A stretch of 55,078 nt of DNA, from NCBI GenBank assembly GCA_946408655.1, contig CAMJTE010000001.1, positions 1 to 55,078 on the forward strand. The letters run 5' to 3'. Within the stretch, counting starts at the first letter, position 1, and each line of letters starts with the position of its first letter. A program made the position numbers and the translations under genes. Shown here piece after piece: positions 7,157 to 26,898 of the stretch. The stretch is from an uncultured Bacillales bacterium. Its GTDB lineage: Bacteria; Bacillota_I; Bacilli_A; RF39; UBA660. The notes below the pieces were generated by a model. The model was not told where the DNA came from, did not search any database, and was given only the letters and a program-made list of their open reading frames with translations.

Positions 7157-9304
7157 TCACTCACTAAAGAAGTCATCAAAGAATTGATCATCTGTTACTC
7201 CACCATTCTGTTTTTCTTTTGTACTAGACTTATCAGGAGTAATAACTTCTTCGATATCAGCATCAATAACTTTTTTAGAATCATCCACACTCTTTTTTTC
7301 GTCAGATTTATTCTCAGATTTTTGTTCTTGTTCTTTTCTTTCTTCTTCTTCAAGTTCGGCAATTTTAGCATCTATTCTTTTTACCATTTCATCAATATTA
7401 AATGAATTATTATTAGGTTTTGATGATCCACCACCAAAAGGATTTGCACCCATTCCACCTAGTCCTGAAGGCATTCCATTCATTCCAGGAAGTCCAGGTA
7501 ATCCTGGTAGTCCTCCCGGCATCCCACCAAATCCACCAAGTGGTAATCCTCCACCAGTAGGATTAGGGCCACCGGAACCTAACATATTATTTATTTTATC
7601 TTCTCTTTTCTTTTCTACAAAACCTTTTAAATCAAAAACCTTCACAGGTAATTTTTCATGAACAGGATAAGTTGCCTTAGGATAATTAACTCCCCAATCC
7701 ATCTTAAAATTAGGTGTTAGTTTTGTTTTAAATGGCATCATACGAATTCTAAGAACAATAGTTTCCCACATTTTCATACGTTGTAAGTCACTTACAGTAA
7801 CTAACGGAGTTGATGAGGTTTTCTCTTTTTCCTTAGATTTAACTTCACCACACATTTTACTAATCTCTTCAAGTGCAGAAAGTTCAGAACTAATTAAATA
7901 AATAATATTACCACAGTTACCTTTTATAGTCTCTCCATTTTCTTTACCATAAACTTCATAAAGCTGAGCAAAGTTCTGAATAATAAAAGTAAATCTAATA
8001 TTTCTTGAACGAGCTGCAGTAACCATTGTAGTAACATCTTTTAAAGGAGGCATATTAGCAAACTCATCTAGAATAAAGTTAGTTCTATGAGGTAATTTTC
8101 CTCCACTTTCTTGTGCAACAGAAATCAACGTTTCATAACATTGCTTTAGAAATATTGTAACTAATGCATGATAAGTTTTCTTTTCATCTTGAATAACTAT
8201 AAATACAGCTGTTTTCTTTCTACCAATATCACGCATATCGAAGTCATTATGCGCAAGCATTTCAGATAAGTTTTCACGAGAAGCAAACAACTTTATTTTT
8301 TGTTTAAATACTGATAGTATACTTCCTCTAGTTTCATTCGGAGCCATAATTGTTGAAGATGCATTAACATATGCAGGACTAGCAGGATCTTTATAACTAA
8401 AATATTCATTAACATACTTAGTATTACCTATTTTTTCTTCACCAACAGTAGTCATCAAGTTAATACTATTTAAATTTATTTCATCTTCCGCGGCATCTTC
8501 AAACAATCCTAATGATAAACCAGCAAAATAGTCTGCAGAAGTGTTTTCCCAGAATGGATCTTGCCCTTTAGATGATTCATCATAAAGTATATTTTTAGCA
8601 AGGTCATCTAATAACTCATTAGCCTTATCTTGATTACCATTTTGATAAAACGAATATGGTAAACTCATCGGATTCCAAGAATTACCTTGTTGTGGGTCAC
8701 GAAAGTTTAAAAGAACTATGTTATAACCTAAGTCTCTTAACATCTCAGATGTATCTTCAAAAATTTCACCCTTTGGGTCTGTTATAATCATTGATTCATC
8801 ATGCTTACAAAGCAATTGTACCATAGGAAGTACAGTAGTCTGTGTTTTACCTGCACCAGTAGAACCAATAACTAGATTATGGTATCCTCCATCATCAACC
8901 CAAGCTTCCTTTTCATTCATTATGATAGGAATACCAGCAGCATCATTATGTTTAGCCTTAGGATCAACTTTTTTTAATTCCTCTTTCATCTCTTTATCTT
9001 TAGCCCAACGAGAATAGTTTTTTTCTTTTTTAGCACCCACTTCAATTCCAACGCCACTACTTCTTTCAAATATATATGATTTAACACTTATTAAACCAAT
9101 AATTATTCCAATAAAGAACCCTACAATGGTCATTGAAAACATAATTCCATTAGTAAATACTAAGAATATATTTGCAGTAAATGGTTCTTCCTCGACAAAT
9201 GCATTAATATTTACAACTAAAAGTTGTACAACAATAAGCCAAACAAAAGAAAAAATACAGAAAATCAATAAATCTTTAGGCTCGACTCTTAATCTTAGTT
9301 TCAT
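7157..9304 (-). CDS. Type IV coupling protein (VirD4/TraG/TcpA-like)
   Basis: 715 aa. Two N-terminal TM helices. Walker A GSTGAGKTQT, TDPKGE, Walker B-like NFILDEFANMPP. C-terminal Gly/Pro/Met-rich low-complexity segment and acidic-aromatic tail. GGAGG RBS. Confidence 0.85.
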   Translation of the reverse strand: MKLRLRVEPKDLLIFCIFSFVWLIVVQLLVVNINAFVEEEPFTANIFLVFTNGIMFSMTIVGFFIGIIIGLISVKSYIFERSSGVGIEVGAKKEKNYSRWAKDKEMKEELKKVDPKAKHNDAAGIPIIMNEKEAWVDDGGYHNLVIGSTGAGKTQTTVLPMVQLLCKHDESMIITDPKGEIFEDTSEMLRDLGYNIVLLNFRDPQQGNSWNPMSLPYSFYQNGNQDKANELLDDLAKNILYDESSKGQDPFWENTSADYFAGLSLGLFEDAAEDEINLNSINLMTTVGEEKIGNTKYVNEYFSYKDPASPAYVNASSTIMAPNETRGSILSVFKQKIKLFASRENLSEMLAHNDFDMRDIGRKKTAVFIVIQDEKKTYHALVTIFLKQCYETLISVAQESGGKLPHRTNFILDEFANMPPLKDVTTMVTAARSRNIRFTFIIQNFAQLYEVYGKENGETIKGNCGNIIYLISSELSALEEISKMCGEVKSKEKEKTSSTPLVTVSDLQRMKMWETIVLRIRMMPFKTKLTPNFKMDWGVNYPKATYPVHEKLPVKVFDLKGFVEKKREDKINNMLGSGGPNPTGGGLPLGGFGGMPGGLPGLPGLPGMNGMPSGLGGMGANPFGGGSSKPNNNSFNIDEMVKRIDAKIAELEEEERKEQEQKSENKSDEKKSVDDSKKVIDADIEEVITPDKSSTKEKQNGGVTDDQFFDDFFSE

Positions 9305-10265: not shown

Positions 10266-11621
10266 CTAGTAATAGTGAATTGTACCTCCAAATCCTTTTG
10301 CGGTTTCTTCAACAATTTTAGCTAATTTAGATTTTTCATCATTTGGTACATTAAAATTACCTATACATTCTATATTTCCATCATCACTTTGTTGATCATG
10401 TGTTGTATATATTCCTGATGTAAATACCAACCATTCTGATTTTCTTCTTTTTATTAATCCCGGCCAAGTTATGCCATTACCATGAACATATTCACAAAAT
10501 GATTGAAATAATTTATATGTATATCCATATTTCTTGTAACCATCAATGACATTATATGTAAAACCAGCTCCACCATTATATTCACTCGACGTTAAAGCAA
10601 GAATTTGATTATTATTTAAGGTTACTCCGTTATCACTTAAAATTTTTTCAACAGATTTTCTATGTAGTTGCATTGCATAGAGATATACCCTATCTATATC
10701 TGCCTTAGGAACCCTAGAACCAACATATATTTGTGATGGATCAACGCCAGCAAGCCTAAATGCTTCAACTTCATGTGGTGTTATTCCAGGACCTATTGTC
10801 CAAACAACCCCATCTCCGCCATCATAAGCAACATAATACTCTCCTTCTTCAACACCACCTTCAAAATATCTAACCCAGTCTAATAATTCTTGTGGAATAA
10901 AACAATCATCTTCACTTGTGCCGCCTGGACCACTAGGCCTAGAATTTTCAGGATCTATATAATTTAAAGGATCGACTCTCGCCCCAAATTCATCTTGACC
11001 TTCTCTAACCTCAAAATGTAGATGTGTACCAGTTGAATGACCACTTGAACCAACTTTACCTATAACTTGTCCTTGTACAACCTTATCCCCAGCATTAACC
11101 TTAATAGTATTCTGATGAAGGTGTCCATAATATTGATAATTACCATCATTTGATTTAATAACAATGTGATTTCCATAAGAACCGCCACAACTATAATCTC
11201 CAAAAGAAACACATCCATTATAAGCTGATATAACTTCTCCAGATTGGGCAGCAATTACATTTACAACTCCAGCATCAGCTGCAGGAGCAATATCAAGACC
11301 ACCATGTCCATAATCATGAATCCCTGCCTCTGTTGCACCAAACGTTGATGATATATATACTGTATTAGGTTCTCCAGTAGCCATTTCTACTCCTTTTTCA
11401 TTGGTTACTTGATCGCTTCCAATAGGCCACATATATGACTTACTCCCACCACAGGCATCAGAATAACCCGAATCAGATCCACTATCTACTGGATATAAAT
11501 CATCAAAAAACTCTTTATAATCATATATATCTTGTCTTTCAAGTTCATACTCAGCAAAAATAATTGTAGGTATAATTAGCATTGTAATAATAAATAATAT
11601 ATATTTTTTCAAACTAATCAC
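10266..11621 (-). CDS. Bifunctional peptidoglycan hydrolase: M23/LytM metallopeptidase plus phage-type lysozyme domain
   Basis: 451 aa. Signal peptide. M23 motifs HGGLDI and GHSTGTHLHFEV. C-terminal lysozyme-like motifs (WVRYFEG, TIGPGIT, EYNGGAG, GLIKRRKSEW). The start is non-ATG: GTG at 11621, or TTG at 11612 preceded by AGGTGA. Confidence 0.8.
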   Translation of the reverse strand: MISLKKYILFIITMLIIPTIIFAEYELERQDIYDYKEFFDDLYPVDSGSDSGYSDACGGSKSYMWPIGSDQVTNEKGVEMATGEPNTVYISSTFGATEAGIHDYGHGGLDIAPAADAGVVNVIAAQSGEVISAYNGCVSFGDYSCGGSYGNHIVIKSNDGNYQYYGHLHQNTIKVNAGDKVVQGQVIGKVGSSGHSTGTHLHFEVREGQDEFGARVDPLNYIDPENSRPSGPGGTSEDDCFIPQELLDWVRYFEGGVEEGEYYVAYDGGDGVVWTIGPGITPHEVEAFRLAGVDPSQIYVGSRVPKADIDRVYLYAMQLHRKSVEKILSDNGVTLNNNQILALTSSEYNGGAGFTYNVIDGYKKYGYTYKLFQSFCEYVHGNGITWPGLIKRRKSEWLVFTSGIYTTHDQQSDDGNIECIGNFNVPNDEKSKLAKIVEETAKGFGGTIHYY

Positions 11622-11629
11622 CTCACAAC

Positions 11630-12271
11630 CTATATTTCATTACTAACTTTAATTTTTTTCATTACCATATATACTGCTAATAAAACAATAACAATTCCTG
11701 CACCTAAAATAATATAAATACTATATTTTGATAAAATAAAGCTTTTACTAGCTGTCCCTTTTGCAATCTTTATTTTAATACTAAAATCATTTTTATTCTC
11801 ATTAGTTAAATACCAAGTATATTTATTACCTTTAACTTTATCAGCATTATTACTTACAACTTTATTTTTAGTAATAATATTAATATTCAAATTATAATCA
11901 TACATACAATCTGTCATATCACTTAAATTTATTTCGTAATACTTTTCATCATCCATAATAACCTTTTTCTTAGTAAAGCATTGATTAATTGTATTAGCAT
12001 TTACAAAATCATATGGTTTATAAGTATATTTATAGATTGCAGAAATTATATTACCTTTTTTTTCTATTTTCTTTTCATACATTACATCATTATTAGCATG
12101 AAGAGGATACTGATTAGCATTTATTCTCTTCATGTTATCATCAGTATTTTCAACACTAATTCTAAACTCTTCTTTTATTGAAGAATCATTTATAAATAAA
12201 TAATATTCCTGTTTACATCCTGCTAACTCTAACAAAATTAGAATCAGCACCATAAACTTTATTTTCTTCAT
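11630..12271 (-). CDS. Lipoprotein with C-terminal TM anchor, unknown function
   Basis: 213 aa. Lipobox LLELAGC. C-terminal hydrophobic helix IYIILGAGIVIVLLAVYMV. Confidence 0.55.
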   Translation of the reverse strand: MKKIKFMVLILILLELAGCKQEYYLFINDSSIKEEFRISVENTDDNMKRINANQYPLHANNDVMYEKKIEKKGNIISAIYKYTYKPYDFVNANTINQCFTKKKVIMDDEKYYEINLSDMTDCMYDYNLNINIITKNKVVSNNADKVKGNKYTWYLTNENKNDFSIKIKIAKGTASKSFILSKYSIYIILGAGIVIVLLAVYMVMKKIKVSNEI

Positions 12272-12282
12272 ATTTCACCACA

Positions 12283-13566
12283 CTAATAATTAGGTCTAAA
12301 ATAACCATTTATTCCCTGTAATCCATAAGTTCCACAATGCGTTTTTCTATTATACTGTTTCTTTCTTACAGCATCCCCACTATTTCCTTCAACTGTATAA
12401 ACATATGTGTCATCTACCGCATATACATATCCAACGTGACTACTATAATATTTATCATTTCCATTAGCAGGCCAAGGAGTATATCCACCAACATATGGAT
12501 CAAATACGATGACATCTCCAGCAGCTGGAACTGTTCTTGGATCAGTACATTCATCTTCATACCAAGTTCCATAACCCGCTGCAACCGAAGCACGAGGAAT
12601 TTCACCTGCAATTAATGAACTTTTTATATACTTATCAATTCCTCCAATTTGATTAAATAACCAAGAAGTAAAAGCCGCACACCATTCAACTCTACCACCT
12701 GTATTAAACCAGCCCCAATATTTTGCTCCACCAGCATTAACTTGATCAGCTTCAGCAAGAGCAATTTCCGTCATTTTATCAATGGCTTCCTTACCAGTTT
12801 TAGAAACAACTGTACTAGCAGAATTATTTGGCCCTAATCCCGTAGAACAACTTTGAATCTCGGTTCCAGGAGTATGATATTTTAACTTAACATATTCTAT
12901 TAAAAAATCTTTATATTTTTTTAGGTCTAATTCATAACTTTCTTTTATAGATTCTTTATCATATTCACCATCTTCACACTTTAATGTTTCTTTAGAATAA
13001 TTAGATTTCTCAATGTCCTCTGCTTTTAACTCATCATTACTTTCTTCATTACTTTCTTCTTCATTTTTTTCTTCAGAATCATCTTTCTTACATTTATAGG
13101 TTATTGACTTTTTTACCATGTTCTTTGCAAGTATTTGCATATCATAAGAAAAATCATTAGCATTTAAATACGTATAACATGGATCATTTTTAAAATCATA
13201 TTCCCAATCCAAATTTGTAATCTGATTCTCATTTTTCAAAGAATTTCTATCATATCTATTTAAATTATTAGCAAAAACAGTAGGCAATTCTTCATTATTG
13301 TAATAAAGAGCAGCCATTATTAAAGGTAAATCTAGTGTTACTTTATATTTATTTTGATAAAGATAATATAGATCATACATTTTTAAATAAAATTTATATT
13401 CATTACCATTTCTACAATCATCATCTGAATTATCGTTTGTACAAGCTTTCATTGTTCCAAAATAGTCACTTAAATCAGATGAATCGTAATAATCAGATAT
13501 TTCATAAGCCCTATTTACTCCAACAAACATAAATATAATTAGAAATATTAATATTATCTTTTTCAT
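12283..13566 (-). CDS. Secreted CHAP-domain peptidoglycan hydrolase (paralog 2)
   Basis: 427 aa. Signal peptide, acidic linker. CHAP motifs EWCAAFTSWLFNQ, GDVIVFD, SHVGYVYAVDD..YTVEGN. C-terminal end INGYFRPNY. Confidence 0.8.
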   Translation of the reverse strand: MKKIILIFLIIFMFVGVNRAYEISDYYDSSDLSDYFGTMKACTNDNSDDDCRNGNEYKFYLKMYDLYYLYQNKYKVTLDLPLIMAALYYNNEELPTVFANNLNRYDRNSLKNENQITNLDWEYDFKNDPCYTYLNANDFSYDMQILAKNMVKKSITYKCKKDDSEEKNEEESNEESNDELKAEDIEKSNYSKETLKCEDGEYDKESIKESYELDLKKYKDFLIEYVKLKYHTPGTEIQSCSTGLGPNNSASTVVSKTGKEAIDKMTEIALAEADQVNAGGAKYWGWFNTGGRVEWCAAFTSWLFNQIGGIDKYIKSSLIAGEIPRASVAAGYGTWYEDECTDPRTVPAAGDVIVFDPYVGGYTPWPANGNDKYYSSHVGYVYAVDDTYVYTVEGNSGDAVRKKQYNRKTHCGTYGLQGINGYFRPNY

Positions 13567-13578
13567 AATTCCTCACTT

Positions 13579-14799
13579 TTAATAATTTGGTCTATAATAT
13601 CCGTTTATCATACAATCTTTTCTCTCATGCGTAACGAATACAACTCTTTCCGGATCATGGTTTCCTTCAACGGTATAAATATTTTTATCATCTACTGCAT
13701 AAACATATCCAACATGTCGACTGGAGTATCTATCCAAATAACAATCATCACCTGGCTTGCACGTATTCCAGTGAAGTACATCTCCCGACTTTGGAACTGT
13801 TTTAGAATCAGTACATTCGTCTTCATACCAAGTACCATATCCATTCGCAACAGCTCCTCTTGCACCAGGACCAGCTGCACCAGATTTTTCATAGTACTTA
13901 TCTAATCCATTTACTTGGTCAAAAAGCCATGAAACAAACATTCCACACCAATCAGCTTCAAGTCCATACCAATCTTGATATTTTCTTCTTCCAACTCCAT
14001 TTTCCGCTTCCTTTGTTGCAATTTCATTTATTTTATCAATAGTCTGATTACCAGTTTTAGGAACAGGAACAGGTGGTGTACTACTAGATGTTGACTCACC
14101 ATAATAATTAGAACCTTCTGAATTATTATTGCTGCTATTAGCATCATCGCCACTTTGATTACTATACCATTCAGTCAACTCTTCTTCTATTGGATTAGAT
14201 TTTGATGCAAGATATGCTTTACCACCAGAATCTGCAAGAGAAGAAACCATTATAACACAAAAGAAAATTGCCCCAACAAGAATACCTCCGCAAATAAAAA
14301 TAAATAAATATTTCATTTGCCTAGTTGTAATTGCTGTATATCTCGCCTCAGCAGCATCAGGTTTATATTCTTCTCCTAGCTGTTCTGCTCTATTAGCCTC
14401 TTCAACATCATCAGCACTAGCATTAGCTTTATCCCCAACTTTAGACATCAAGTTTTGAAAAAAACCCTTATTTCTAGTACTTTTAATTCTTTCAATCATT
14501 TTAGCCATTTTAGCATATTTGCGGGCTACTGGAATTCTTTCAGCAATCTTAATCGCTTTATCTATATTTTTTCCATTTTGCATCCTTCTAGTAGAATTTC
14601 TACTATTTATACCGGAAATACTACTAGAAGAACGGGTAGTAGAAGAAGTACTCCCACTTATTAATGAACTAGATGAAGATAATCCTCCTCCAGAATCTCG
14701 TTTACCAATGCTACTCCTACGTCCTTGTACAGCAGCATCTTTTCTTAACTGTCCCGTTTGTTTTGCAGTTGAAATTCCTTTAGCTACATTATCTTTCAT
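13579..14799 (-). CDS. Bitopic CHAP-domain peptidoglycan hydrolase (paralog 3) with Ser-rich cytoplasmic N-terminus
   Basis: 406 aa. Ser/Arg-rich N-terminal ~165 aa, then a TM helix (YLFIFICGGILVGAIFFCVIMV). CHAP motifs DWCGMFVSWLFDQ, RHVGYVYAVDD..YTVEGN. C-terminal end INGYYRPNY. Confidence 0.8.
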   Translation of the reverse strand: MKDNVAKGISTAKQTGQLRKDAAVQGRRSSIGKRDSGGGLSSSSSLISGSTSSTTRSSSSISGINSRNSTRRMQNGKNIDKAIKIAERIPVARKYAKMAKMIERIKSTRNKGFFQNLMSKVGDKANASADDVEEANRAEQLGEEYKPDAAEARYTAITTRQMKYLFIFICGGILVGAIFFCVIMVSSLADSGGKAYLASKSNPIEEELTEWYSNQSGDDANSSNNNSEGSNYYGESTSSSTPPVPVPKTGNQTIDKINEIATKEAENGVGRRKYQDWYGLEADWCGMFVSWLFDQVNGLDKYYEKSGAAGPGARGAVANGYGTWYEDECTDSKTVPKSGDVLHWNTCKPGDDCYLDRYSSRHVGYVYAVDDKNIYTVEGNHDPERVVFVTHERKDCMINGYYRPNY

Positions 14800-16604: not shown

Positions 16605-17143
16605 GCAAACACCGTCCCAAAATTAGTGGTCTCTCCACCATTTAAAAAATTATCCAAAATCATTCTTAAATCATCATTACTAGTCTGCGTAGCAGTAAGA
16701 CCTGCAGCAGCAAAATTATTAATTAAATTTCTAATACGTTTCTGAATAATATCAGTATCTTTATGCTTAAACAAAAGATAATACTCAGTATCAACAACAC
16801 TATTTCTAACAAACATAGTAGCCTTATCCATATCCTCAGAAATAATCTTTCTTTGAACAGGCGATACACTAGAATTATATAGAACCTGAAGTTCAGACAA
16901 ATAGACATTAATATCTACCGGCCTATCAGCAGCAATAATCCAAAACTCATAATCAATAACATTATATACAGTCTTTAAATTAGTAATAATCGCACTCTGA
17001 GTAGCAGGATCAAGAATAAAAATATTCCTTGGCATAATCTTCACACCAGATACCTTCATCTTATTATCAAGTTCAATCATCCCACTTGCAATAGATTTAA
17101 CCGGAACATCAGTATATCTACTTTTTATCGTCTTCTTCGCCAT
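16601..17143 (-). CDS. Protein resembling the detached N-terminal domain of Gram-positive VirB4-type ATPases
   Basis: The probable start is MAKKTIK at 17143 (the ORF track start is 17203). The pattern VPVKSI..GMIELDN..VSGVKIMPRNIF.L....Q..II..L matches my recollection of the N-terminus of Tn916 Orf16, ConE and TcpF-type proteins. 181+595 aa is close to the usual ~800 aa. Confidence 0.5.
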   Translation of the reverse strand: MAKKTIKSRYTDVPVKSIASGMIELDNKMKVSGVKIMPRNIFILDPATQSAIITNLKTVYNVIDYEFWIIAADRPVDINVYLSELQVLYNSSVSPVQRKIISEDMDKATMFVRNSVVDTEYYLLFKHKDTDIIQKRIRNLINNFAAAGLTATQTSNDDLRMILDNFLNGGETTNFGTVFA

Positions 17144-17441
17144 CGTTATAACACCAACCTCTCCATATATATTTTTGTCTTGTAGTATAAAACTCCCAAG
17201 CAAGTTTGATCACAGTCCTAATATTATGATAATTAGGAACAGGAAAAACCAAAAATGCACTAATTACCCCCGGAGCCAAAGCAATAATCGCAAATAGAAA
17301 CCCCTCAATAGGTAATATCAGTAACATTAATAATGAAACACCTACACCAACAAGAAATAAAGCCAAATCAAACTTCGTAAACAAACCAAATAGTAACATC
17401 GACTTCTTCGAGTTAGCCGGTATCAAATACATATTATCCAT
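17118..17441 (-). CDS. Small two-TM T4SS membrane protein (VirB3/PrgI/TcpE-like)
   Basis: 107 aa. Two adjacent TM helices and a basic/aromatic C-terminal segment. It lies directly upstream of the VirB4 genes, as in Gram-positive T4SS loci. Confidence 0.5.
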   Translation of the reverse strand: MDNMYLIPANSKKSMLLFGLFTKFDLALFLVGVGVSLLMLLILPIEGFLFAIIALAPGVISAFLVFPVPNYHNIRTVIKLAWEFYTTRQKYIWRGWCYNDGEEDDKK

Positions 17442-17461: not shown

Positions 17462-19462
17462 TTATCCAATAGTAGATTTATCAGCTTGAACTTTTCTTTG
17501 TTGTTTTCCAAGATCTTTGATTTTTTGCTCATTGTCTGCAATTTTTTCTCTATCCGAACTAATACTCTGTTCAAGTGCAAAATTATCATTTGTAAATTTA
17601 TTCTTATCCGCATCCAATCCTGCTGCATCCTTCGCAGCATTTGTTCCACGCATAGCAGCATATGCAGAATAATTATTCTTTAAATCATCATCAGTAGCCA
17701 AATTTGCATTTATCCAAGCATCACGTCCAGTTGTATTTGCATATGTTTCAGCATCAAATTTAAGTTCAGATGCCTTGGCACCACGTTCTTGATCATTAGA
17801 CCATTTATATATTTTTCCATTAACGGTTACACTTCCTTTAGAAGCTTTACTAGATAACAATCCATCAGCATTATTTAAATAATCTTTATAAATTTGTCCT
17901 GCTGCGCCACTACCTTGTTTAACTTTTTTTACACCTCGATCTTGGATTTTTTCAATATATCCTGATGCCTTATTATTCTCTGATATTTTTCTCTCGGTAG
18001 GAGCAATTTTTGCCTGCAAGTCTTTATTTTCATTTTCATATTGTTTAACTCGTCTTTCAACTCTAGATTCAGCACCACCAAATCCAGTCTTTTTTGCAAA
18101 TCTTGCACCTAATCTTCCATGCCAAGTTGATCCATTCATTCGAGCATCTCTTAATTTACTTGCATAATCAGCTTGATGTTTTGCAGCATCGCCAAAGCCT
18201 TTACCACTCATAAATCCCGCTGCTGCACCTCTAAGTCCTCTTCCATGCATTGCTCCAATCGCTAATCCACCTGCAGCTCCTGTAATTCTTTTTCCACCTA
18301 CTGCTCCTTCTTCTAATTTCTTAAGTGGATTAAGACTAAACTTACCATCACCTTCAATTTTAACCCCCATATTTTCAAGTATCTTTGGTAATTGTTTTAT
18401 GAACATTAATACTCCAATAATAACAAATATTTTAACCCAACCATTCGTTATTTGTGAACCATTAACTATATCATACATTCCCATATCTGCTACTTTAGTT
18501 ATAATATATATACCAAAGTATAGTGCAAGCAATCTAATAAATAAACTTAAAAATGTTGAAACACACATCTTATACCATTTTGAAAACATGCCATCTTTTC
18601 CACTTTTTGGATCCATATATGATATAACTGGTATTGGATATATTAATTGTAAGAAAGCGAGTTTTACACTTCTAACGCCAATATCTATACAGAATGATAT
18701 TAATAGTAAGCATACTACAACCGCAGTAACGGTTGATAATGGTTTTTTATAATCTATTATAAAGTGTTGATCTGATGGAGTGTCTTCATCTTCTGCATCA
18801 TTTGTAGTTGCTAAAGCTGTCGATGTTCTAAATGTAAGCCCAAGACTTTTATTTGCAATACCATAAGTATAATTTTCTAGATGAGGGCTATTAAGTCCAG
18901 CAGACTCTAAAGCATTAGTACAAGCCTCGCTAAAGTCACCATTTTCATCAACCATGTTCATACATTCTGAAAGACCTTCTACAGAATAATTTGGACTAAA
19001 GAAAGGCATCATTACATAAAATGCCATTCTATTACCCGCTGTATCAAGAATAGTCGATTCTCCTTCACCTTGTATCTTCTCACCTAAAAGGAGTTTAGCA
19101 AGTATATTATCATCTAACACTTTGGCTTGTAAACTAAATGCCATTTGAAAAATATATGGCACTAAAACTAAAAGCACAAGAGATATAACTGAACTTTGAA
19201 TAAGTTTACCAAAGCCTTTGCTTTTATCTGAAAATTCATCTGGATTAACCACATATGTAATCAACGAAAAAGAAACTTTGAACAGCATAAAAATTCCAAG
19301 TAATATTTCTATTCTAGCTGCAAAAGACGCTATATCTCCTTGAGATAATATAGACGTTCTTGAAATAGCTATTAATAAATCATATAGAGTTCCTATAAAA
19401 TTAAACAAAGTGGTATCTAATGACATAAAGAATCTAACCATTAATTTTTCAAACCACAACAT
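17462..19462 (-). CDS. Polytopic T4SS channel protein (VirB6/TrbL/TcpH/ConG-like)
   Basis: 666 aa. About 6-7 TM helices in the first ~370 aa, then a Gly-rich amphipathic stretch and a coiled-coil C-terminal region. The position is typical for a VirB6 analogue. Confidence 0.55.
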   Translation of the reverse strand: MLWFEKLMVRFFMSLDTTLFNFIGTLYDLLIAISRTSILSQGDIASFAARIEILLGIFMLFKVSFSLITYVVNPDEFSDKSKGFGKLIQSSVISLVLLVLVPYIFQMAFSLQAKVLDDNILAKLLLGEKIQGEGESTILDTAGNRMAFYVMMPFFSPNYSVEGLSECMNMVDENGDFSEACTNALESAGLNSPHLENYTYGIANKSLGLTFRTSTALATTNDAEDEDTPSDQHFIIDYKKPLSTVTAVVVCLLLISFCIDIGVRSVKLAFLQLIYPIPVISYMDPKSGKDGMFSKWYKMCVSTFLSLFIRLLALYFGIYIITKVADMGMYDIVNGSQITNGWVKIFVIIGVLMFIKQLPKILENMGVKIEGDGKFSLNPLKKLEEGAVGGKRITGAAGGLAIGAMHGRGLRGAAAGFMSGKGFGDAAKHQADYASKLRDARMNGSTWHGRLGARFAKKTGFGGAESRVERRVKQYENENKDLQAKIAPTERKISENNKASGYIEKIQDRGVKKVKQGSGAAGQIYKDYLNNADGLLSSKASKGSVTVNGKIYKWSNDQERGAKASELKFDAETYANTTGRDAWINANLATDDDLKNNYSAYAAMRGTNAAKDAAGLDADKNKFTNDNFALEQSISSDREKIADNEQKIKDLGKQQRKVQADKSTIG

Positions 19463-19565: not shown

Positions 19566-19958
19566 TTAATTACGTAATTGACAAGATGCCGATGTATTAT
19601 CACTTGCATTACCACTTACAAAGCAGTTAAAACAACTCATAATACTGTTTTCATCAGTTCCTGCAACAAATCTAACAACTAATTGAACTAATGATACTAC
19701 AAAGAATACGATAACTGCGGCAATTAATCTTTTTATAAAAGTAGTTTGATTTTTCTTAATTTCATCTTCCTTACCAGCAATAACCGCCTTAGCTAAGTCT
19801 AACATACCAAAAATAATTAATAAAATTGGAACAATAATTTTAATTAACATTACGATTGTAGATACTACATATGGAAACATACCACTAAATACAAAATTAT
19901 TAATATTTCCACAAGAATACTCTAACCCCATATCAACTTTTGCCAAAATTTCAAACAT
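19566..19958 (-). CDS. VirB2/TrbC-like two-TM protein, paralog 4 (no cleavable signal peptide)
   Basis: 130 aa. TM1 (IKIIVPILLIIFGMLDL), charged loop AGKEDEIKKNQTTFIKR, TM2, and a Cys-rich tail (SCFNCF...SC). It has its own promoter and terminator. Confidence 0.5.
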   Translation of the reverse strand: MFEILAKVDMGLEYSCGNINNFVFSGMFPYVVSTIVMLIKIIVPILLIIFGMLDLAKAVIAGKEDEIKKNQTTFIKRLIAAVIVFFVVSLVQLVVRFVAGTDENSIMSCFNCFVSGNASDNTSASCQLRN

Positions 19959-19982
19959 ATCTTTTCCTCCTAAACTAATTTA

Positions 19983-20011
19983 ATTATATATCTTAATAAC
20001 AATTTTGTCAA
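19983..20011 (-). promoter_or_regulatory. Consensus sigma-A promoter for paralog 4
   Basis: Minus strand reads TTGACA (20011-20006), an exact 17-nt spacer, then TATAAT (19988-19983). AGGAGG RBS downstream. Confidence 0.75.
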
Positions 20012-20017
20012 TATACG

Positions 20018-21100
20018 CTATTTTATTATATAAGGATCTTTTTCAGTTCCACTACCAGATATAAATAGCTCTTCTCCATCAATATAAATAACCCAATGAT
20101 ACTTTTGATATCTGCTTGTCTCTGCTAACTCTACACCAATAGAATTAATTAAATAAGCTACCGAATCATCTTCAGATACTGTATCAACTGTCCAACTATA
20201 ATCTATAAAATTAGCAATATAATTATAATTTGTACATGACAAATCACCAATTTTCTTACAATTTGCATCATAACTTGCCTGTAAGAAATCAGTTATACTT
20301 GGTAAAGTAATTAACTGTCCATCCAATGTTTCATTACATTCAGTAGTAATACCAAGACTTAAATCTTCTTTAGAACGTTTTCCTATACATACACTATGAG
20401 GAACAATTTTACCTCTAATATCATTATTCATTGTTTTATCATTTTTATAATCATATAGTAATCTATCTATAATTACACTATCTTTATAATTATTAATACC
20501 AGTATAAGAATTCTTATTTATATTATACTTATTATCCCAGTTAAAAGACATATCTTGAGCTTTTTCTTTAATAAGTTTTAAATTACCATTAGAATCTATC
20601 TTAATTATTCTATATATAGTTCCATAGAAAGATAAATAATTCTTAACCTTATTACCTTTAAAAATGTATTCATCCCCAATTTTATAAAGACCAGAACCAG
20701 CTTCAACAACATCTTTCATTAAATAATCTTTTAAGTACTCAGTCTTATAATTATCACATTCTAAATATGGAATATATGAATAATATTTACCTTCAGTAGT
20801 ACTATTATTCTTAACAACAACACTACCACTACAACTTGAATCCTTCAAAGCTTTATCTGGACTTTTTAATCCATCATCAATTAAATTATCAAGTTTTATA
20901 ATAGTACTCTTACCATTCTTAGGTAAGATTTTATGATTTTTAGCATAATTTTTTGCCCTATTCATCATCATTTCTTCATATTTAGAATATGATTTTTTAC
21001 TGCTACAACCTCTAAGAAGTGCCATAAGTAAAATAAACAGTAAGGGCAACGATATTAATACAACACACGTTACCAAAAATTTTGAATCTAACTTTTTCAT
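20018..21100 (-). CDS. Exported (possibly lipid-anchored) protein of unknown function
   Basis: Start reassigned to MKKLDSKF at 21100, where AGGTGA lies 4 nt upstream (track start 21130). Hydrophobic N-terminus ending LLRGC. About 320 aa extracytoplasmic with several Cys. Confidence 0.55.
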   Translation of the reverse strand: MKKLDSKFLVTCVVLISLPLLFILLMALLRGCSSKKSYSKYEEMMMNRAKNYAKNHKILPKNGKSTIIKLDNLIDDGLKSPDKALKDSSCSGSVVVKNNSTTEGKYYSYIPYLECDNYKTEYLKDYLMKDVVEAGSGLYKIGDEYIFKGNKVKNYLSFYGTIYRIIKIDSNGNLKLIKEKAQDMSFNWDNKYNINKNSYTGINNYKDSVIIDRLLYDYKNDKTMNNDIRGKIVPHSVCIGKRSKEDLSLGITTECNETLDGQLITLPSITDFLQASYDANCKKIGDLSCTNYNYIANFIDYSWTVDTVSEDDSVAYLINSIGVELAETSRYQKYHWVIYIDGEELFISGSGTEKDPYIIK

Positions 21101-21108
21101 TAAATCAC

Positions 21109-21549
21109 CTAGTCTTCTTGGGTTGCGCAAGTATCACCAGTACCATTAATAAAACAGTTAACACAATTTATCATGTCTTTAGATTTTCCAGAATCCGCAA
21201 CAAAACTTATAAGTAATTTAACTATTACAAAGACAAAGAATACAATTGCAGCGGCAATAAGTCTTTTTACAAAAGTCATCTGATTCTTTTTTATTTCGTC
21301 TTCTTTACCCGCAATAACAGCTTTAATTAAATCAATCATACCAAATACAACAAGAACAACTGGCACAACAATTTGAATAACCAAAAAAATTATATGAACT
21401 GTATCTGCAATTTTTGCATCAATTAAAAGTTCATGCTCACCTTTGGTTAAGAAATTATCACAACCAAGAATACTTTTAGTAGCATACACAGGACTTGCCA
21501 TAAGACAACACATAACAATTAACAATAAATAACTTAATTTCTTTTTCAT
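21109..21549 (-). CDS. VirB2/TrbC-like two-TM protein, paralog 3
   Basis: 146 aa. Signal peptide ending PVYA. TM1, loop AGKEDEIKKNQMTFVKR, TM2, tail NCVNCFINGTGDTC. Confidence 0.5.
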   Translation of the reverse strand: MKKKLSYLLLIVMCCLMASPVYATKSILGCDNFLTKGEHELLIDAKIADTVHIIFLVIQIVVPVVLVVFGMIDLIKAVIAGKEDEIKKNQMTFVKRLIAAAIVFFVFVIVKLLISFVADSGKSKDMINCVNCFINGTGDTCATQED

Positions 21550-21560
21550 AAATTCACTCC

Positions 21561-21968
21561 TTACTTACAATTACTTGCGTTATTTATAAAACATTCAACG
21601 CATCCCCAAATTCCATCACTATCTCCGCCTATCGCACTAATAAGCAGTTTAACAATTACAAAAACAAAGAACACAAGTGCACCCATTACTAATCTTTTAA
21701 TAAACATTCCTTGGGCTTTTTTAATATCATCATCTTTACTTGATGATACAGCTTTTAAAAAATCAATAGATCCCATTATTATTAATATAACTGGTACTGC
21801 TATTTGCAATACATTAATCACCGTGTTAGATAACTGTAAAACCTTATATGGTAAATTCTTAATACTACCACAGGTAACATAAGTACCTTTCGCATACACA
21901 GGCGTAGATAATATAAAAGCAATTATTAGTGTAATAATATATTTAAATTTATTTTTCATAATCACCAC
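21561..21968 (-). CDS. VirB2/TrbC-like two-TM protein, paralog 2
   Basis: 135 aa. Signal peptide ending PVYA. TM1, loop SSKDDDIKKAQGMFIKR, TM2, tail GCVECFINNASNC. Confidence 0.5.
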   Translation of the reverse strand: MVIMKNKFKYIITLIIAFILSTPVYAKGTYVTCGSIKNLPYKVLQLSNTVINVLQIAVPVILIIMGSIDFLKAVSSSKDDDIKKAQGMFIKRLVMGALVFFVFVIVKLLISAIGGDSDGIWGCVECFINNASNCK

Positions 21969-22436
21969 TTACTCAGTTACACAACTCTTATTATTTAAAA
22001 AGCAATTCGCACACTTCATAATATTTCCTTTATCACTCGCATCTGCAACCACACTAATTAACAATTTAACAATTACAAAGACAAAGAATACAAGCGCACC
22101 TACAATTAACTTTTTAACAAAAGCCATTTGTGCTTTTTTTATTTCATCTTCTTTACCAGCAGTAACAGATCTAATTAGTGTAATCATTCCCATTATAATT
22201 AATATTATTGGAACAACAACTTGAATAATATTATAAGCTATATTTACAGTCTTTACAATGCTCTTTGGGACATGCTTAACCATCCCTCCACCACAGCTTA
22301 CCTTATCCGTATTCAAGTTTTCATATGACTCACCAGATAAATCAACATTTTCATCTGCTGCATAAACAACATTTCTCACACCAAATTGTACCACAAATAA
22401 TGCGATAATTGCAAATAAAACATATATTTTCTTCAT
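21969..22436 (-). CDS. VirB2/TrbC-like two-TM protein, paralog 1
   Basis: 155 aa. Signal peptide ending VVYA. TM1, loop AGKEDEIKKAQMAFVKK, TM2, tail KCANCFLNNKSC. Confidence 0.5.
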   Translation of the reverse strand: MKKIYVLFAIIALFVVQFGVRNVVYAADENVDLSGESYENLNTDKVSCGGGMVKHVPKSIVKTVNIAYNIIQVVVPIILIIMGMITLIRSVTAGKEDEIKKAQMAFVKKLIVGALVFFVFVIVKLLISVVADASDKGNIMKCANCFLNNKSCVTE

Positions 22437-22445
22437 AAAATCACC

Positions 22446-23330
22446 CTATAGTTTCAATTTATCTATTAAATTATTTATCAAATCACTATTATGTCTTTCA
22501 TTTAACATTGGTAATACATAATATGCTTTTATATGTGATTCACTCTCAAATTCTTTTATCTCATCATTAGTTAAAGGACTTTTATTAAGTATTACCTTTT
22601 TATCTTTCAAAGAATTAAAAGTAGTAGGATCAACCATCATAGACTCATTTATTCGAATCATAGTTGGTTCAACCAAATAAATAATTTCATCACAATATTT
22701 TACCGCATTTTTAGAATTATTCAAGTCTATTAAGATAATATCTGTATTTCCATACTTTTCTAAAGTCATATCAATTGCATTATCTTGAATAGAAATCATC
22801 TCTTTATTGTAAAAAAAATTAAAATCTAACTTATCTATTTCTAAAGCTAGTACCTTACGTGCTTTATCTAAATGCTTTTTTAATATATATATTAAAGTAG
22901 TAGATCCTGCATGCTTAGTTACATTCTTAAATCCGATAGTTTTTGTTATTTTTTTACTTTTATTAACAAGTATAATTGCATCATCATAATTGTTAGGATT
23001 ACTATATAACTCTACTATATGTTCTGCAGTATAAGCAATATTATAAATACCAAGTTCAATAATACTATTTAAATATTCTATACTTATATTATCTTTACTT
23101 AATACTAATATTAAATTATCAGGTTTAATAAAACTAATAAGACTTTTAAGTACATTAATATCATTATAATTATTTAAAGAAGTAATATCTATAATAGCCT
23201 TCTCATAACTCAAAGAACTTATCTCATTAAATAATACACCAACATCATAAGTACCATTCAACCTTTTTACGGTTGCAATAGAAATACTATCAATAATACT
23301 ACTATTTAAATTCTCAATTACTATATTCAT
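22446..23330 (-). CDS. Possible TadZ/CpaE-like pilus localisation protein (degenerate ParA/MinD fold)
   Basis: 294 aa, cytoplasmic. N-terminal receiver-like ~120 aa, then a degenerate P-loop-like segment (GFKNVTKHAGSTTLIYIL). The position beside the pilin genes fits TadZ. Motif support is weak. Confidence 0.35.
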   Translation of the reverse strand: MNIVIENLNSSIIDSISIATVKRLNGTYDVGVLFNEISSLSYEKAIIDITSLNNYNDINVLKSLISFIKPDNLILVLSKDNISIEYLNSIIELGIYNIAYTAEHIVELYSNPNNYDDAIILVNKSKKITKTIGFKNVTKHAGSTTLIYILKKHLDKARKVLALEIDKLDFNFFYNKEMISIQDNAIDMTLEKYGNTDIILIDLNNSKNAVKYCDEIIYLVEPTMIRINESMMVDPTTFNSLKDKKVILNKSPLTNDEIKEFESESHIKAYYVLPMLNERHNSDLINNLIDKLKL

Positions 23331-23342
23331 ACATTCTCCTAA

Positions 23343-23855
23343 CTAATTGTAATATGTCCTAGTCTCTCCATAAACAGGAGTAGAAAACAAACTACCTATA
23401 CCAAGAACATTTATATTTAAATGACTAAAAGTAACAACAGTATAATAATATTCACTGCTACTTAAAGTAGTTTTATAAACACAATATCCATTATTACTAG
23501 AATTAGTATATACTGGTTCAGTCTTTGGATATTCAGCCTCTTCATCCGTATCTTTATCTAGTGCTTTCTTTTCTACTTTAGCAAATATCTTACCATTACA
23601 TAAATCAGAATCATTCAAATGATAACCCATGTTTTTTAAAGTACTCACAATACTATTAATACAAGAATCATCTTCAAAACAAGTTTTACCAGTACTACTA
23701 TTTACAATATAATATCTATCAAGTGCACTTATTATATTATTCTTAGCCTTATAAGCACTAGTATACATATTAGAAGCAATTAGTATAGCCCCAACTATAC
23801 CTACTACAATAATAACTATATATACAAGCATAGTACTTCCAACCGCATCTTTCAT
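23343..23855 (-). CDS. Pseudopilin/TadE-F-like protein with MKDAVG leader
   Basis: 170 aa. N-terminus is MKDAVG then STMLVYIVIIVVGIVGAILI. The globular domain has 4 Cys. Confidence 0.5.
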   Translation of the reverse strand: MKDAVGSTMLVYIVIIVVGIVGAILIASNMYTSAYKAKNNIISALDRYYIVNSSTGKTCFEDDSCINSIVSTLKNMGYHLNDSDLCNGKIFAKVEKKALDKDTDEEAEYPKTEPVYTNSSNNGYCVYKTTLSSSEYYYTVVTFSHLNINVLGIGSLFSTPVYGETRTYYN

Positions 23856-23869
23856 GCGTCACCTCCTAA

Positions 23870-24382
23870 TTAACAAGTAGAACCATAACAATTATACATA
23901 GTAGACGTACGAGAAGACATTTTGATAGGTACATTAAAATTAAATAAACCAAAATCTAAATTCATACCAGTAGTAACTTTATAACTATAATATTCATAAT
24001 CAGGTGCAGAATCACTAGATTTATCATTAATAATATATACACAGTATCCTCTATAACCTAATTCACTTGCACTAGCAGAATTATTATCATTAATAATAGA
24101 TCCATCAGCCTTAACAAGCCTTACCTTATTATTATTAAAATCATCATTTCCAACACTACATCCACTATTACTTCTGGTATAACCATAACTAGTAAGTCTC
24201 TTTTCAATTTCTTCCTTAGAATAGTCATTAAATCCACCATAGTCCTCAATAGCAGCCGTCAAACTATTATTAATCTTATAAGACTTATAATAACTCAAAG
24301 TAGATATAATAAATCCAAACATAATTATAACAAAAAAAATAACTACATAAATAGCAGAAACAGCCCCAGTACTTTCTTTCAT
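23870..24382 (-). CDS. Pseudopilin/TadE-F-like protein with MKESTG leader
   Basis: 170 aa. N-terminus is MKESTG then AVSAIYVVIFFVIIMFGFII. The globular domain contains Cys residues. Confidence 0.5.
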   Translation of the reverse strand: MKESTGAVSAIYVVIFFVIIMFGFIISTLSYYKSYKINNSLTAAIEDYGGFNDYSKEEIEKRLTSYGYTRSNSGCSVGNDDFNNNKVRLVKADGSIINDNNSASASELGYRGYCVYIINDKSSDSAPDYEYYSYKVTTGMNLDFGLFNFNVPIKMSSRTSTMYNCYGSTC

Positions 24383-24385
24383 AAA

Positions 24386-24601
24386 TTAGTTACACGCTCC
24401 ATCAGAGTCCATTGTACACTTTTGACCCAAATCATTATGACAACTGCCATCATAATAAGAATAACCAGCGTTTTCACAATTAGCTCTTTTGCTTTGATTA
24501 GACAATAGAGTTGTCATAATAACAACTAATGTCGCTATTACTCCTGCAATCAAAGTAATAGTTATAATTGTCATTGCAGATTCTCCAACTGCTTCTTTCA
24601 T
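24386..24601 (-). CDS. Small pilin-like protein (Flp-sized) with MKEAVG leader and 4-Cys C-terminus
   Basis: Start reassigned to the second ATG at 24601. GGAG abuts the first ATG and sits 9 nt before the second. 71 aa: MKEAVG then a hydrophobic helix. Tail is CENAGYSYYDGSCHNDLGQKCTMDSDGAC. Confidence 0.55.
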   Translation of the reverse strand: MKEAVGESAMTIITITLIAGVIATLVVIMTTLLSNQSKRANCENAGYSYYDGSCHNDLGQKCTMDSDGACN

Positions 24602-24685
24602 TAAAATCATCTCCTATTACATTTATATCAGAAGAAAAGTAATTAAAGTAATATACCTTTCTTCTAATACAAATATCATTTTGTA

Positions 24686-24886
24686 TTAGCTATTTTTTAC
24701 ACATTTTCCACTTGATAAAGTATATCCATCTGGACAAACATCTACTGGATTCTCACTAATATTGGCAGTGCTTGAATTTGCCTTATTAGTCATAATTAAT
24801 ACAATTGCTGCTGCTGCTGCCAATAGACCAACTATTACTACTATAGTGACAACTGTCATACTTCCTTCTCCTGTTGCTTCCTTCAT
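24686..24886 (-). CDS. Small pilin-like protein (Flp-sized) with MKEATG leader and 2-Cys C-terminus
   Basis: 66 aa. MKEATG then EGSMTVVTIVVIVGLLAAAAAIVLIM. Tail is CPDGYTLSSGKC. Strong AGGAGGTGA RBS. First gene after a consensus promoter. Confidence 0.6.
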   Translation of the reverse strand: MKEATGEGSMTVVTIVVIVGLLAAAAAIVLIMTNKANSSTANISENPVDVCPDGYTLSSGKCVKNS

Positions 24887-24915
24887 TTAAATATCACCTC
24901 CTGTATTTTTATTAG

Positions 24916-24944
24916 ATTATATCACATATTTCATTTGATATCAA
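24916..24944 (-). promoter_or_regulatory. Near-consensus sigma-A promoter of the pilin operon
   Basis: Minus strand reads TTGATA (24944-24939), a 17-nt spacer, then TGaTATAAT (-10 at 24921-24916). Confidence 0.7.
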
Positions 24945-24952
24945 TAAAGTAA

Positions 24953-25010
24953 ATGGTTTAACCGTATTTTTTTTGTTAAATTATGTAAAAATATTACGGT
25001 TTAACCGTAA
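24953..25010. promoter_or_regulatory. Operator-like sites upstream of the pilin promoter
   Basis: Perfect 8-1-8 palindrome ttacggtt-t-aaccgtaa at 24994-25010. A related imperfect copy (atggtttaaccgta) sits at 24953-24966, about 9 nt upstream of the -35. Confidence 0.4.
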
Positions 25011-25028
25011 TAAGGTATTATATTTAAT

Positions 25029-25069
25029 TAAAAAGTGCTATAAAAATTTTTTTGTAGCACTTTTTTTTA
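25029..25069. terminator. Bidirectional hairpin terminator
   Basis: aaagtgcta / tagcacttt stem, extendable through an A5/T5 segment. T8 follows on the plus strand and T-rich sequence follows on the minus strand. Confidence 0.65.
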
Positions 25070-25081
25070 TCTTTATGATTA

Positions 25082-25333
25082 TTATAGTTCCTCTATTTTT
25101 TCCTTAGATAATCCTGTAATACTTTCAATATCCAATATGTCAATTCCCTTTAATTTCATTTTCTTTGCCATATCTAAAGTATTTTTTTCAGTAACTTCCT
25201 TAATTACTTCTTCAGTAACCTTTTTCGTTGGTGCTTCTACTGCATACTCAATATTAGCTTCAAATACTTCTTTTAAATACTCTTCCCTATCATAAGCTAC
25301 TATTACATCATCTTCAAAACTATATCTCTTCAC
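25082..25333 (-). CDS. Hypothetical 83-aa protein, possibly a gene remnant
   Basis: GTG start with no convincing RBS. The C-terminal GIDILDIESITGLSKEKIEEL looks like an HTH tail. It may not be functional. Confidence 0.3.
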   Translation of the reverse strand: MKRYSFEDDVIVAYDREEYLKEVFEANIEYAVEAPTKKVTEEVIKEVTEKNTLDMAKKMKLKGIDILDIESITGLSKEKIEEL

Positions 25334-25516
25334 AATATCACTTATTTCTTTTAATAATTCGTTTCACTTGACGATTTTTTCTTACATTTCTACTTCATAA
25401 ATGACTATTACCATTATTAGAGCTATAGTATCTTACTAACTAAAAATGACTGCTTTTTATATATATTTTTTTTTATTATCTGATTAATATAATGATTCTA
25501 AACTATCTCAACATTA

Positions 25517-26338
25517 TTATACTTGAACAGTCTCTAAAGATTCAAAAAATAAAATTACACTAGTAATAACTTCATTTATTGGAATTTCAAGCCAATTACT
25601 TCTTGCGTTATCTAGTTTTGAGATAAATCTTTTATTTTTTAATATCATTTTTAATCGTAATACTATATTGTTTATACTATTCTGGTTTATATTCTTATCT
25701 TTAATAAGCAATAAATCTATATATTTAATTAGTTTATCTTTATTTAATATATTATTTTTTATTAAATAATAAAAATCAAATATATCTTTATATCTAGTAG
25801 AACGAATACCAAATTTTAATAATGAATTTAACTTTTCGCATACAATTTGTTCAGGTGAATTTATGAGCAAAGAAATGCTACCATCTAAAATGTTAAAATC
25901 AAATACATATTCATCTTGTTCTATTTCAAAATATTTATGAACGCCAATATCCAGCTTAGTTTCAAGAGAATTATTATATTTATCATTAATCAAAATATTT
26001 ACCCGCTTTCCATCATATAATTGATGATGCAAATTTTTTATATCACCGTTAATTTTTATCGTTGTCTCTCTATCACTTTTATTTAATTCATTTATAAAGT
26101 TTATTATGCTATCATCTTTAAGAGAATACTTGATAAAATCTAAATCTAAGTCACGAGTTGCACGTCTTCTATTTTTTCTTATATTATGCATTACAACTCC
26201 ACCTTTAATTGTAACATTATAATTATATTTAATTTTACCTATTTTATATAAAATTATATCTTGACAAACCTTTGACTGAGCATCGACTAGTTCATATCCA
26301 AATGACAAATAATTATTAACAAGTTCAATTAAATTCAT
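25517..26338 (-). CDS. AbiEii/AbiGii-family nucleotidyltransferase toxin
   Basis: 273 aa. IKGGVVMH..RATRDLDLDF nucleotidyltransferase motif. Start and stop are coupled with the upstream antitoxin gene. Confidence 0.75.
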   Translation of the reverse strand: MNLIELVNNYLSFGYELVDAQSKVCQDIILYKIGKIKYNYNVTIKGGVVMHNIRKNRRRATRDLDLDFIKYSLKDDSIINFINELNKSDRETTIKINGDIKNLHHQLYDGKRVNILINDKYNNSLETKLDIGVHKYFEIEQDEYVFDFNILDGSISLLINSPEQIVCEKLNSLLKFGIRSTRYKDIFDFYYLIKNNILNKDKLIKYIDLLLIKDKNINQNSINNIVLRLKMILKNKRFISKLDNARSNWLEIPINEVITSVILFFESLETVQV

Positions 26339-26877: not shown

Positions 26878-26898
26878 TATATCACCAGAATTAATTTT

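Follow-up and report, generated by a model that had tools for sequence, protein, structure and literature searches.

Which kind of protein is encoded by four short, paralogous genes placed between a type IV secretion system (T4SS) block and a Tad-like pilus module in an uncultured Bacillales bacterium, and what do the conserved cysteines of these proteins do? The genes are found in a stretch of 55,078 nucleotides (nt) on contig CAMJTE010000001.1 (GenBank assembly GCA_946408655.1), which is referred to here as the window and has a G+C content of 23-33%. The initial annotation of the window had seen in them two-helix membrane proteins of the VirB2/TrbC pilin type, and had proposed that disulfides between their N- and C-terminal segments could take over the role that head-to-tail cyclisation has in those pilins. 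According to our analysis, there is a slightly better than even chance that the four genes encode VirB2-like (pilin-like) subunits of a monoderm T4SS, and the pattern of cysteines across the family suggests a disulfide joining the two outer ends of each subunit.

On the minus strand, each of the four open reading frames (ORFs) was found at the coordinates that the annotation had assigned to it (Table 1). Judged by their sequences, the paralogy of the four genes, also claimed there, is far above chance. Paralogs 2, 3 and 4 are 45%, 47% and 39% identical to paralog 1, 26 columns are invariant (including P76, G83, K95, D97, I99, K100, K101, Q103, F117, F118, C142, C145, F146 and C152), the hidden Markov model (HMM) of the family scores the four proteins with 144-196 bits, and DNA identity among three of the four genes is 71-73% over 219 nt. 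The described motifs were recovered in all four proteins, namely the N-terminal cysteine within SCGGG, TCGS, GCDN or SCGN, the VPI or VPV of the first transmembrane (TM) helix, and the CxxCF followed by a further cysteine in the tail. The charged loop AGKEDEIKK[AN]Q..F[VI]K[KR] was likewise borne out, with SSKDDDIKKAQ as the variant of paralog 2. Sites resembling Shine-Dalgarno (SD) sequences precede paralogs 1, 3 and 4, the gene for a protein of 360 amino acids (aa) interposed between paralogs 3 and 4, and the VirB6-like gene. The GTG of paralog 2 comes immediately after the stop codon of paralog 1, no SD-like site was found upstream of it, and the ATG located 9 nt downstream, at 21959, is probably the start of this gene.

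The hairpin proteins, as profile comparison places them, are members of a large family that has no name. A word-indexed search returned 166 relatives, none of them with an informative name, and when the family profile was searched exhaustively, 8,918 clusters at 50% identity were recovered at E<=1e-3 (4,338 of them at E<=1e-10). In many members, a cysteine-rich extension separates the signal peptide from the core, and C-terminal extensions occur in some. Genome matches were almost all to uncultured gut metagenome-assembled genomes (human, rabbit, ruminant and chicken), with host labels of Bacilli, Tenericutes and Erysipelotrichaceae and including Ca. Pelethosoma (Mycoplasmatota in NCBI), and no match was obtained by tblastn against 72,556 plasmids.

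In regard to array organization, 85 loci contained between one and seven copies of the hairpin gene, most often four (33 loci). The commonest layout, present in 39 of the 85, consists of three hairpin genes, a gap of ~1.1 kb holding a gene for a protein of ~360 aa, and one more hairpin gene, after which VirB6-like, PrgI-like and split-VirB4 genes follow in the relatives' loci as they do in the window. The annotation had considered both the four paralogs in one locus and the 360-aa gene inside the array to be unusual. Neither impression holds within the family, where this 3+1 array is the modal layout and the ~360-aa gene is a part of it, and arrays of VirB2-like genes are already known in Patescibacteria (PMC12102498). 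Among the 47 loci with at least three copies, referred to below as multi-copy loci, the 360-aa gene was found in 46, VirB6-like genes in 44, VirB4 in 41-42 and Tad-like genes in 46-47. Array positions also keep their identity across loci: of 1482 comparisons made with position 4, 1480 gave position 4 as the best match, with a mean identity of 68%, compared with 49-55% for positions 1-3. Other arrangements were observed as well. In loci such as L020 (11371-12495), L024 (11399-12523), L070, L072 and others, position 4 is followed by proteins of 370-470 aa which combine a large, cysteine-rich ectodomain with no more of the family than its C-terminal hairpin, the cysteine tail being absent. Single-copy "orphan" long forms (300-450 aa) are situated away from T4SS genes, and 14 of the 21 single-copy loci lack VirB4/VirB6 genes within 8 kb.

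Several independent features bear on the topology of these proteins. Canonical V-Y-A signal-peptidase sites are present in paralogs 1-3, while paralog 4 has no signal peptide, and the same state is kept among its orthologues. The annotated order of signal peptide, TM helix, basic loop and TM helix is thus valid for the first three proteins and not for the fourth, although two helices, by hydropathy, and the charged loop are common to all four. The loop contains six K/R and three D/E residues (net charge +3), and the tails are neutral or acidic. The single-chain AlphaFold2 (AF2) model of paralog 1, with a predicted local distance difference test score (pLDDT) of 77, is composed of a signal helix, an N-terminal beta-hairpin (45-57), a helical hairpin (58-93 and 96-130), a tail helix (136-148) and a terminal strand, where the beta-hairpin, the tail helix and the terminal strand are grouped together outside the helical hairpin. 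In one relative, a Dockerin_1 domain (30.7 bits, above the cut-off) is placed between the signal peptide and the first conserved cysteine, which supports an N-out topology. Signal peptides, the helix pair, the charge of the loop, the AF2 hairpin and the dockerin domain together predict that the N-terminal segment, the C-terminal tail and all four cysteines are extracellular and that the loop is inside, in agreement with the placement of the cysteines on one extracytoplasmic side in the initial annotation. A lipoprotein role of the N-terminal cysteine was considered and rejected, as this residue is located 8-22 residues beyond a canonical signal peptidase I site and paralog 1 lacks a lipobox.

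Profile matches, weak in the case of the PrgI-like gene, mark the genes next to the array as VirB6-like, PrgI-like, VirB4 and VirD4 genes, and a T4SS context is supported. A preprint by ter Beek et al. from December 2025 reported that PrgF is essential for conjugation, and proposed that two-TM VirB2-like proteins are present near virB6 in most Gram-positive conjugative plasmids (bioRxiv 10.64898/2025.12.18.695078). The predicted architecture and the synteny of the window proteins fit this lately proposed class. They are small proteins predicted to have two TM helices joined by a short charged loop, and external termini. Their precursors of 130-155 aa are near the top of the 50-150 aa range, and 104 nt separate the end of paralog 4 from the VirB6-like gene that follows it. 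PrgF (B2) of pCF10 has the same outline, with two TM helices in a small hairpin, a short charged loop in the cytoplasm and both termini outside, and the pCF10 order of prgF, prgG, prgH (B6), prgI (B3) and prgJ (B4) resembles the order of hairpin genes, VirB6-like gene, PrgI-like gene, VirB4, hydrolases and VirD4 in the window. PrgF differs in having 75 aa, a single copy and neither signal peptide nor cysteine cap, and it has no detectable sequence relation to the window proteins, which are mostly Sec-dependent, have four conserved cysteines, and form four position-specific paralogs with an interposed ectodomain gene. Profile matches to the pilin-like family PF18895 (T4SS_pilin) were found in 22 of 58 relatives at E<=0.01, with the best at 1.6e-6, in a consistent register and in none of the 58 reversed sequences. 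NF045849 (cut-off of 40 bits) matched paralogs 1 and 2 with 11.3 and 10.7 bits (E 0.2-0.3) and four of the 58 relatives (best E 1.2e-3), and other weak matches were to membrane families of the Mycoplasma integrative and conjugative element (ICE). The pilin-like reading is built on this architecture, on a gene position like that of prgF in pCF10, and on the fact that the only weak matches carrying a function are to pilin-like and membrane families of T4SSs or ICEs.

A number of results weigh against it. Homology to any proven pilin is not significant, and the membership in TrbC/VirB2 put forward by the initial annotation is unproven by sequence or fold. PF04956 (TrbC/VirB2) matched neither the window proteins nor the 58 relatives, and PF18895, with a gathering score of 26.6 bits, gave only 17.6, 16.9 and 20.3 bits for paralogs 1, 3 and 4 and no match for paralog 2. 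Spurious matches to TM families were equally strong (DUF621 4e-7, MamI 8e-5, DUF973 1.6e-5 on reversed sequences), and in the NCBIfam scans MamI prevailed, with spurious hairpin matches in 43 of the 58 members. A search of the PDB with the family profile returned a de novo designed protein (E 1.1) and nothing of relevance, and hhalign returned probabilities of 0.4% against PrgF alone and 0.1% against the PrgF family profile. Foldseek comparison of the AF2 model with the PDB found generic TM hairpins (best HtrII, E~0.9) and no pilin, a comparison that carries no information for a two-helix fold. With ~104-130 aa, the mature proteins exceed the known VirB2 or PrgF subunits in size, and the ectodomains of 200-300 aa present in some relatives may not suit a tightly packed pilus. 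Furthermore, the array is as tightly linked to the Tad-like module as to the T4SS (46-47 of the 47 multi-copy loci), and no gene for a thiol oxidase was found among the window ORFs scanned or in the flanks of the 85 loci, whose hosts are gut anaerobes.

Some of these observations would be accommodated by a possible, if unlikely, alternative, in which the hairpin proteins are T4SS membrane subunits that are never extruded. They would surround the VirB6-like channel as anchors or a collar and expose variable ectodomains (adhesins, dockerin), with the disulfide cap as a docking surface. In favour of this are the large ectodomains (up to ~300 aa) at the N- or C-terminus of many relatives, the long proteins that retain only the C-terminal hairpin after position 4, the dockerin fusion in one relative and the lack of significant similarity to any solved pilin. 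However, short forms predominate in the family, the near-invariant loop suits repeated homotypic or lumen-lining contact, and the gene position is the same as that of prgF/virB2. In addition, both termini are outside in solved conjugative pili, so surface decoration is also compatible with a pilus.

The hairpin proteins could also be a part of the adjacent Tad-like pilus module, for instance its assembly platform or accessory membrane subunits, rather than of the T4SS. The array is located at the junction of the two modules, and in 46-47 of the 47 multi-copy loci it is accompanied by the 294-aa protein and by the small prepilin-like genes, whose four products in the window look like Flp/TadE-type prepilins. 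This origin is nevertheless improbable, given that the sole conjugation-specific profile matches are to T4SS or ICE families and that position 4 always adjoins the VirB6-like gene. Tad/Flp systems are also not known to have a two-TM hairpin subunit of this type.

The strongest regularity within the family concerns the cysteines. Their conservation in relatives, which could have failed the idea of a structural role, amounts to 97, 100, 99.6 and 97% for the four positions in 268 sequences. Extracytoplasmic cysteines were counted in 498 non-identical members after a crude cut of the signal peptide, and their number was even in 470, the remainder being mostly faults of this cut. In 467 of the 498, the counts in the N-terminal segment and in the C-terminal tail were both odd; the patterns (N+C) were 1+3 in 276 members, 3+3 in 49, 7+3 in 48, 5+3 in 24, 1+5 in 22 and 1+1 in nine. 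Such parity is expected from one disulfide between the segments accompanied by local pairs. At least eight natural two-cysteine variants keep the equivalents of C48 and C142 and have lost both C145 and C152. From parity and co-loss together, we infer the pairs C48-C142, an N-to-C staple, and C145-C152, a local bond, so that the staple proposed by the annotation gains independent comparative support. As it had also noted, no oxidase of the Dsb or VKOR type is visible: Dsb, VKOR and thioredoxin-like proteins were absent among the window ORFs of at least 90 aa, and a motif scan of the 85 loci for Dsb- or thioredoxin-type CxxC proteins returned a single cytoplasmic-looking thioredoxin and no Dsb, VKOR or exported thioredoxin. 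The lack of a linked Dsb-like oxidase, together with the C...CxxC...C arrangement, which is a classical Cys4 ligand pattern, could point to a metal (Zn/Fe) site or a redox sensor instead of structural disulfides. We regard this as very improbable, since parity and the two-cysteine variants speak against a Zn(Cys)4 site: the variants keep one cysteine in the N-terminal segment and one in the C-terminal tail, extra cysteines are always gained pairwise, and all of them are predicted to be extracytoplasmic. Finally, it is barely credible that these small hydrophobic proteins, despite the lytic enzymes encoded nearby, are holins, bacteriocin/immunity or entry-exclusion proteins unrelated to the channel, given that a scan of 2.9 million viral contigs gave no relative, and that they form a large family with signal peptides, position-specific orthology and strict synteny with VirB6, VirB3 and VirB4.

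If the four proteins are VirB2-like subunits, their path could be envisaged as follows. Each would be inserted as a two-helix hairpin with both termini outside, three by means of a cleaved Sec signal peptide and the fourth by translocation of its N-terminal tail. The N-terminal segment and the C-terminal tail would then form a small extracellular cap locked by two disulfides, where C48-C142 would make the subunit topologically pseudo-cyclic and C145-C152 would close a local loop. By analogy with VirB2 and PrgF, subunits might be recruited onto a VirB6-like platform with the VirB4 ATPase and build a tube or a short pilus across the cell wall, and the invariant KEDEIKK loop would point to the cytoplasm while the subunits are in the membrane pool, and to the lumen once they have assembled. 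The paralogs are presumably non-redundant, with position 4 as the conserved core or adapter subunit beside VirB6. Positions 1-3, which diverge and carry added surface domains in relatives, are probably the exposed part. The staple may provide the protease and shear stability that head-to-tail cyclisation gives to TrbC and VirB2, and could in that sense do the same job.

A more specific picture, quite unlikely to hold in its entirety, is that of a heteropolymeric, disulfide-locked (pseudo-cyclic) conjugative-type pilus of a cell-walled monoderm, made of one conserved core and three variable subunits. It would originate from a relaxase-less T4SS-plus-Tad supercluster fixed in the chromosome of reduced-genome gut Bacilli/Mycoplasmatota, and would serve cell-cell interaction or uptake, like the essential T4SS of Patescibacteria, and not ICE transfer. 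Related to this, no relaxase or integrase was recognised for the T4SS block (3898-34610), and a search for att repeats and flanking tRNA genes found none. The block is flanked by rmuC and a rhodanese gene on one side and by scpA/scpB on the other, with the scpA neighbour common to loci L003 and L004. The cluster may be chromosomally fixed rather than an ICE.

Comparison with known systems places the family at some distance from each of them. A review from December 2025 describes VirB2 and VirB5 subunits as absent from Gram-positive T4SSs, the sole exception being Patescibacteria, where an array of six VirB2-like genes is essential (PMC12857230). Weak PF18895 matches link the window proteins to these arrays (PMC12102498; PMC12857230), yet the hosts here are gut Bacilli/Mycoplasmatota, and a four-cysteine signature is not mentioned for Patescibacteria. 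Neither a cysteine-stapled family nor this host group is described in the review (PMC12857230), in the preprint on PrgF or in the paper on Patescibacteria arrays (PMC12102498). The TrbC subunit was confirmed to be cyclic in the RP4 pilus structure (PMC13434634). In contrast to TrbC of RP4 and VirB2 of the Ti plasmid, the window proteins have a putative Cys-Cys link, no PF04956 match and a monoderm envelope, and no gene for a TraF-like (signal-peptidase-like) cyclase was found among the window ORFs scanned. In Mycoplasma ICEs, a small hairpin protein of NF045849 (Mbov_0395/MMCAP2_0565) is encoded directly upstream of a VirB6-like gene of the MMCAP2_0566 family and of an Mbov_0397-type VirB4, and the window VirB6-like and VirB4 proteins are best matched by the families of these ICEs (342 bits for VirB4); the NF045849 matches themselves are marginal, however, and the Mycoplasma protein has only ~80 aa. 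A structural disulfide stabilises the exported filament subunit also in type IV pilins (in the D-region; ComGC is oxidised by BdbDC in Bacillus), which differ in having an unrelated fold, with one N-terminal helix and a globular head, and an assembly similar to the type II secretion system.

The interposed gene, a conserved member of the array, was predicted mechanically as an ORF from TTG 21130. ATG 21100, assumed in the initial annotation, is favoured by its SD site and is the likely start. The AF2 model of the 360-aa protein has a pLDDT of 92, and its only significant Foldseek match was to a part of the Thomasclavelia ramosa immunoglobulin A peptidase (9qa6, E 3.6e-6), followed by weak matches to C-type-lectin-like folds. 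A VirB8/TcpC-type identity was rejected, as the fold search gave no such match. An adhesin or tip-like role would be a guess. Some homologues of this protein contain DUF6273.

Table 1. Genes of the hairpin array and of the adjoining T4SS and Tad-like modules (positions in the window).
Feature	Coordinates	Strand	Description
Paralog 1	21969..22436	-	155 aa; signal peptide with predicted cleavage after VYA26, acidic linker, C48-G motif, TM1, KEDEIKK loop, TM2, tail C142-x2-C145-F...C152
Paralog 2	21561..21968	-	135 aa from GTG; signal peptide, core and four cysteines as in paralog 1
Paralog 3	21109..21549	-	146 aa; signal peptide, core and four cysteines as in paralog 1
Interposed 360-aa gene	20018..21100	-	N-terminal membrane helix (residues 6-29), beta-rich, cysteine-containing ectodomain
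Paralog 4	19566..19958	-	130 aa; signal peptide absent; better conserved than any other array position; followed directly by the VirB6-like gene
VirB6-like polytopic membrane protein	17462..19462	-	666 aa; PF19597 TrbL_4 2.4e-8; NF045848 MMCAP2_0566 family 6e-10
PrgI/VirB3-like small membrane protein	17118..17441	-	107 aa; weak PF12666 match (E 0.14); orthologues with a weak PF26592 PrgI_like match
VirB4 ATPase, two overlapping genes	16601-17203 and 14817-16604	-	NF045975 VirB4_plasma 9e-13 and 4.6e-102
Cell-wall hydrolases (M23 + lysozyme; two CHAP proteins) and a 213-aa protein	10266..14799	-	
VirD4-type coupling protein	7157..9304	-	PF02534 1.6e-56; NF045973 9.6e-91
Tad-like module	22446-34610	- (to 31734)	Upstream of the array; T2SSE ATPase, CpaB-like protein, four prepilin-like proteins
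294-aa protein	within the Tad-like module	-	No family match
Four small prepilin-like proteins	23343-24886	-	66, 74, 170 and 170 aa; "MK(E/D)-x-x-G" leader, then one hydrophobic helix
Nuclease/AbiE insertion inside the Tad-like module	25517-27900		YhcG-type PD-(D/E)XK nuclease, AbiEii toxin, 179-aa partner
Two unassigned membrane proteins	28002-29710		Tad-like module
T2SSE ATPase	29703-30818	-	
CpaB-like protein	30853-31734	-	
DUF5411 protein	31731-32123		Tad-like module
828-aa dockerin-containing protein	32124-34610		Tad-like module

Several details of the surrounding genes were observed as well. The two VirB4 halves (200 and 595 aa) overlap by 4 nt, and L001 and L003-L005 show the same division (180 and 595 aa), which rules out a sequencing frameshift. 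Downstream of the array, on the same strand, there are genes for three or four peptidoglycan hydrolases. A CHAP-domain protein (3898-5736) contains long in-frame tandem repeats of 66 and 69 nt (4473-5589), and a transposase of the IS1595 family (5940-6959) is inserted on the opposite strand between the VirD4 gene and the last CHAP gene. In the Tad-like module, each of the four prepilin-like proteins has an even number of cysteines (2, 4, 4 and 4), no prepilin peptidase was seen in the window, and the nuclease/AbiE insertion is absent from the corresponding place in L003 and L004. A separate island (44709-54634) holds a serine recombinase, Bro-N and helix-turn-helix proteins, and defence genes, namely an nSTAND3-Mrr fusion, an OLD-like ATPase/TOPRIM protein, GmrSD-HNH, an EcoRI-type methyltransferase and T5orf172.

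As VirB2-like subunits, the hairpin proteins would add a large branch without a name (8,918 clusters at 50% identity) to the VirB2-like proteins of monoderms, and this branch belongs to uncultured gut bacteria. The invariant charged loop, the Sec-dependent precursor and the four-cysteine signature with exactly predicted partners make direct tests possible. A conserved disulfide tying together both outer ends has not been described for this kind of subunit, and, if true, the N-to-C staple would be a convergent counterpart of the head-to-tail cyclisation of TrbC and VirB2. Likewise, with a conserved paralog beside three variable ones, the 3+1 array would offer a model for the major, minor and adhesive subunits of monoderm conjugative filaments.

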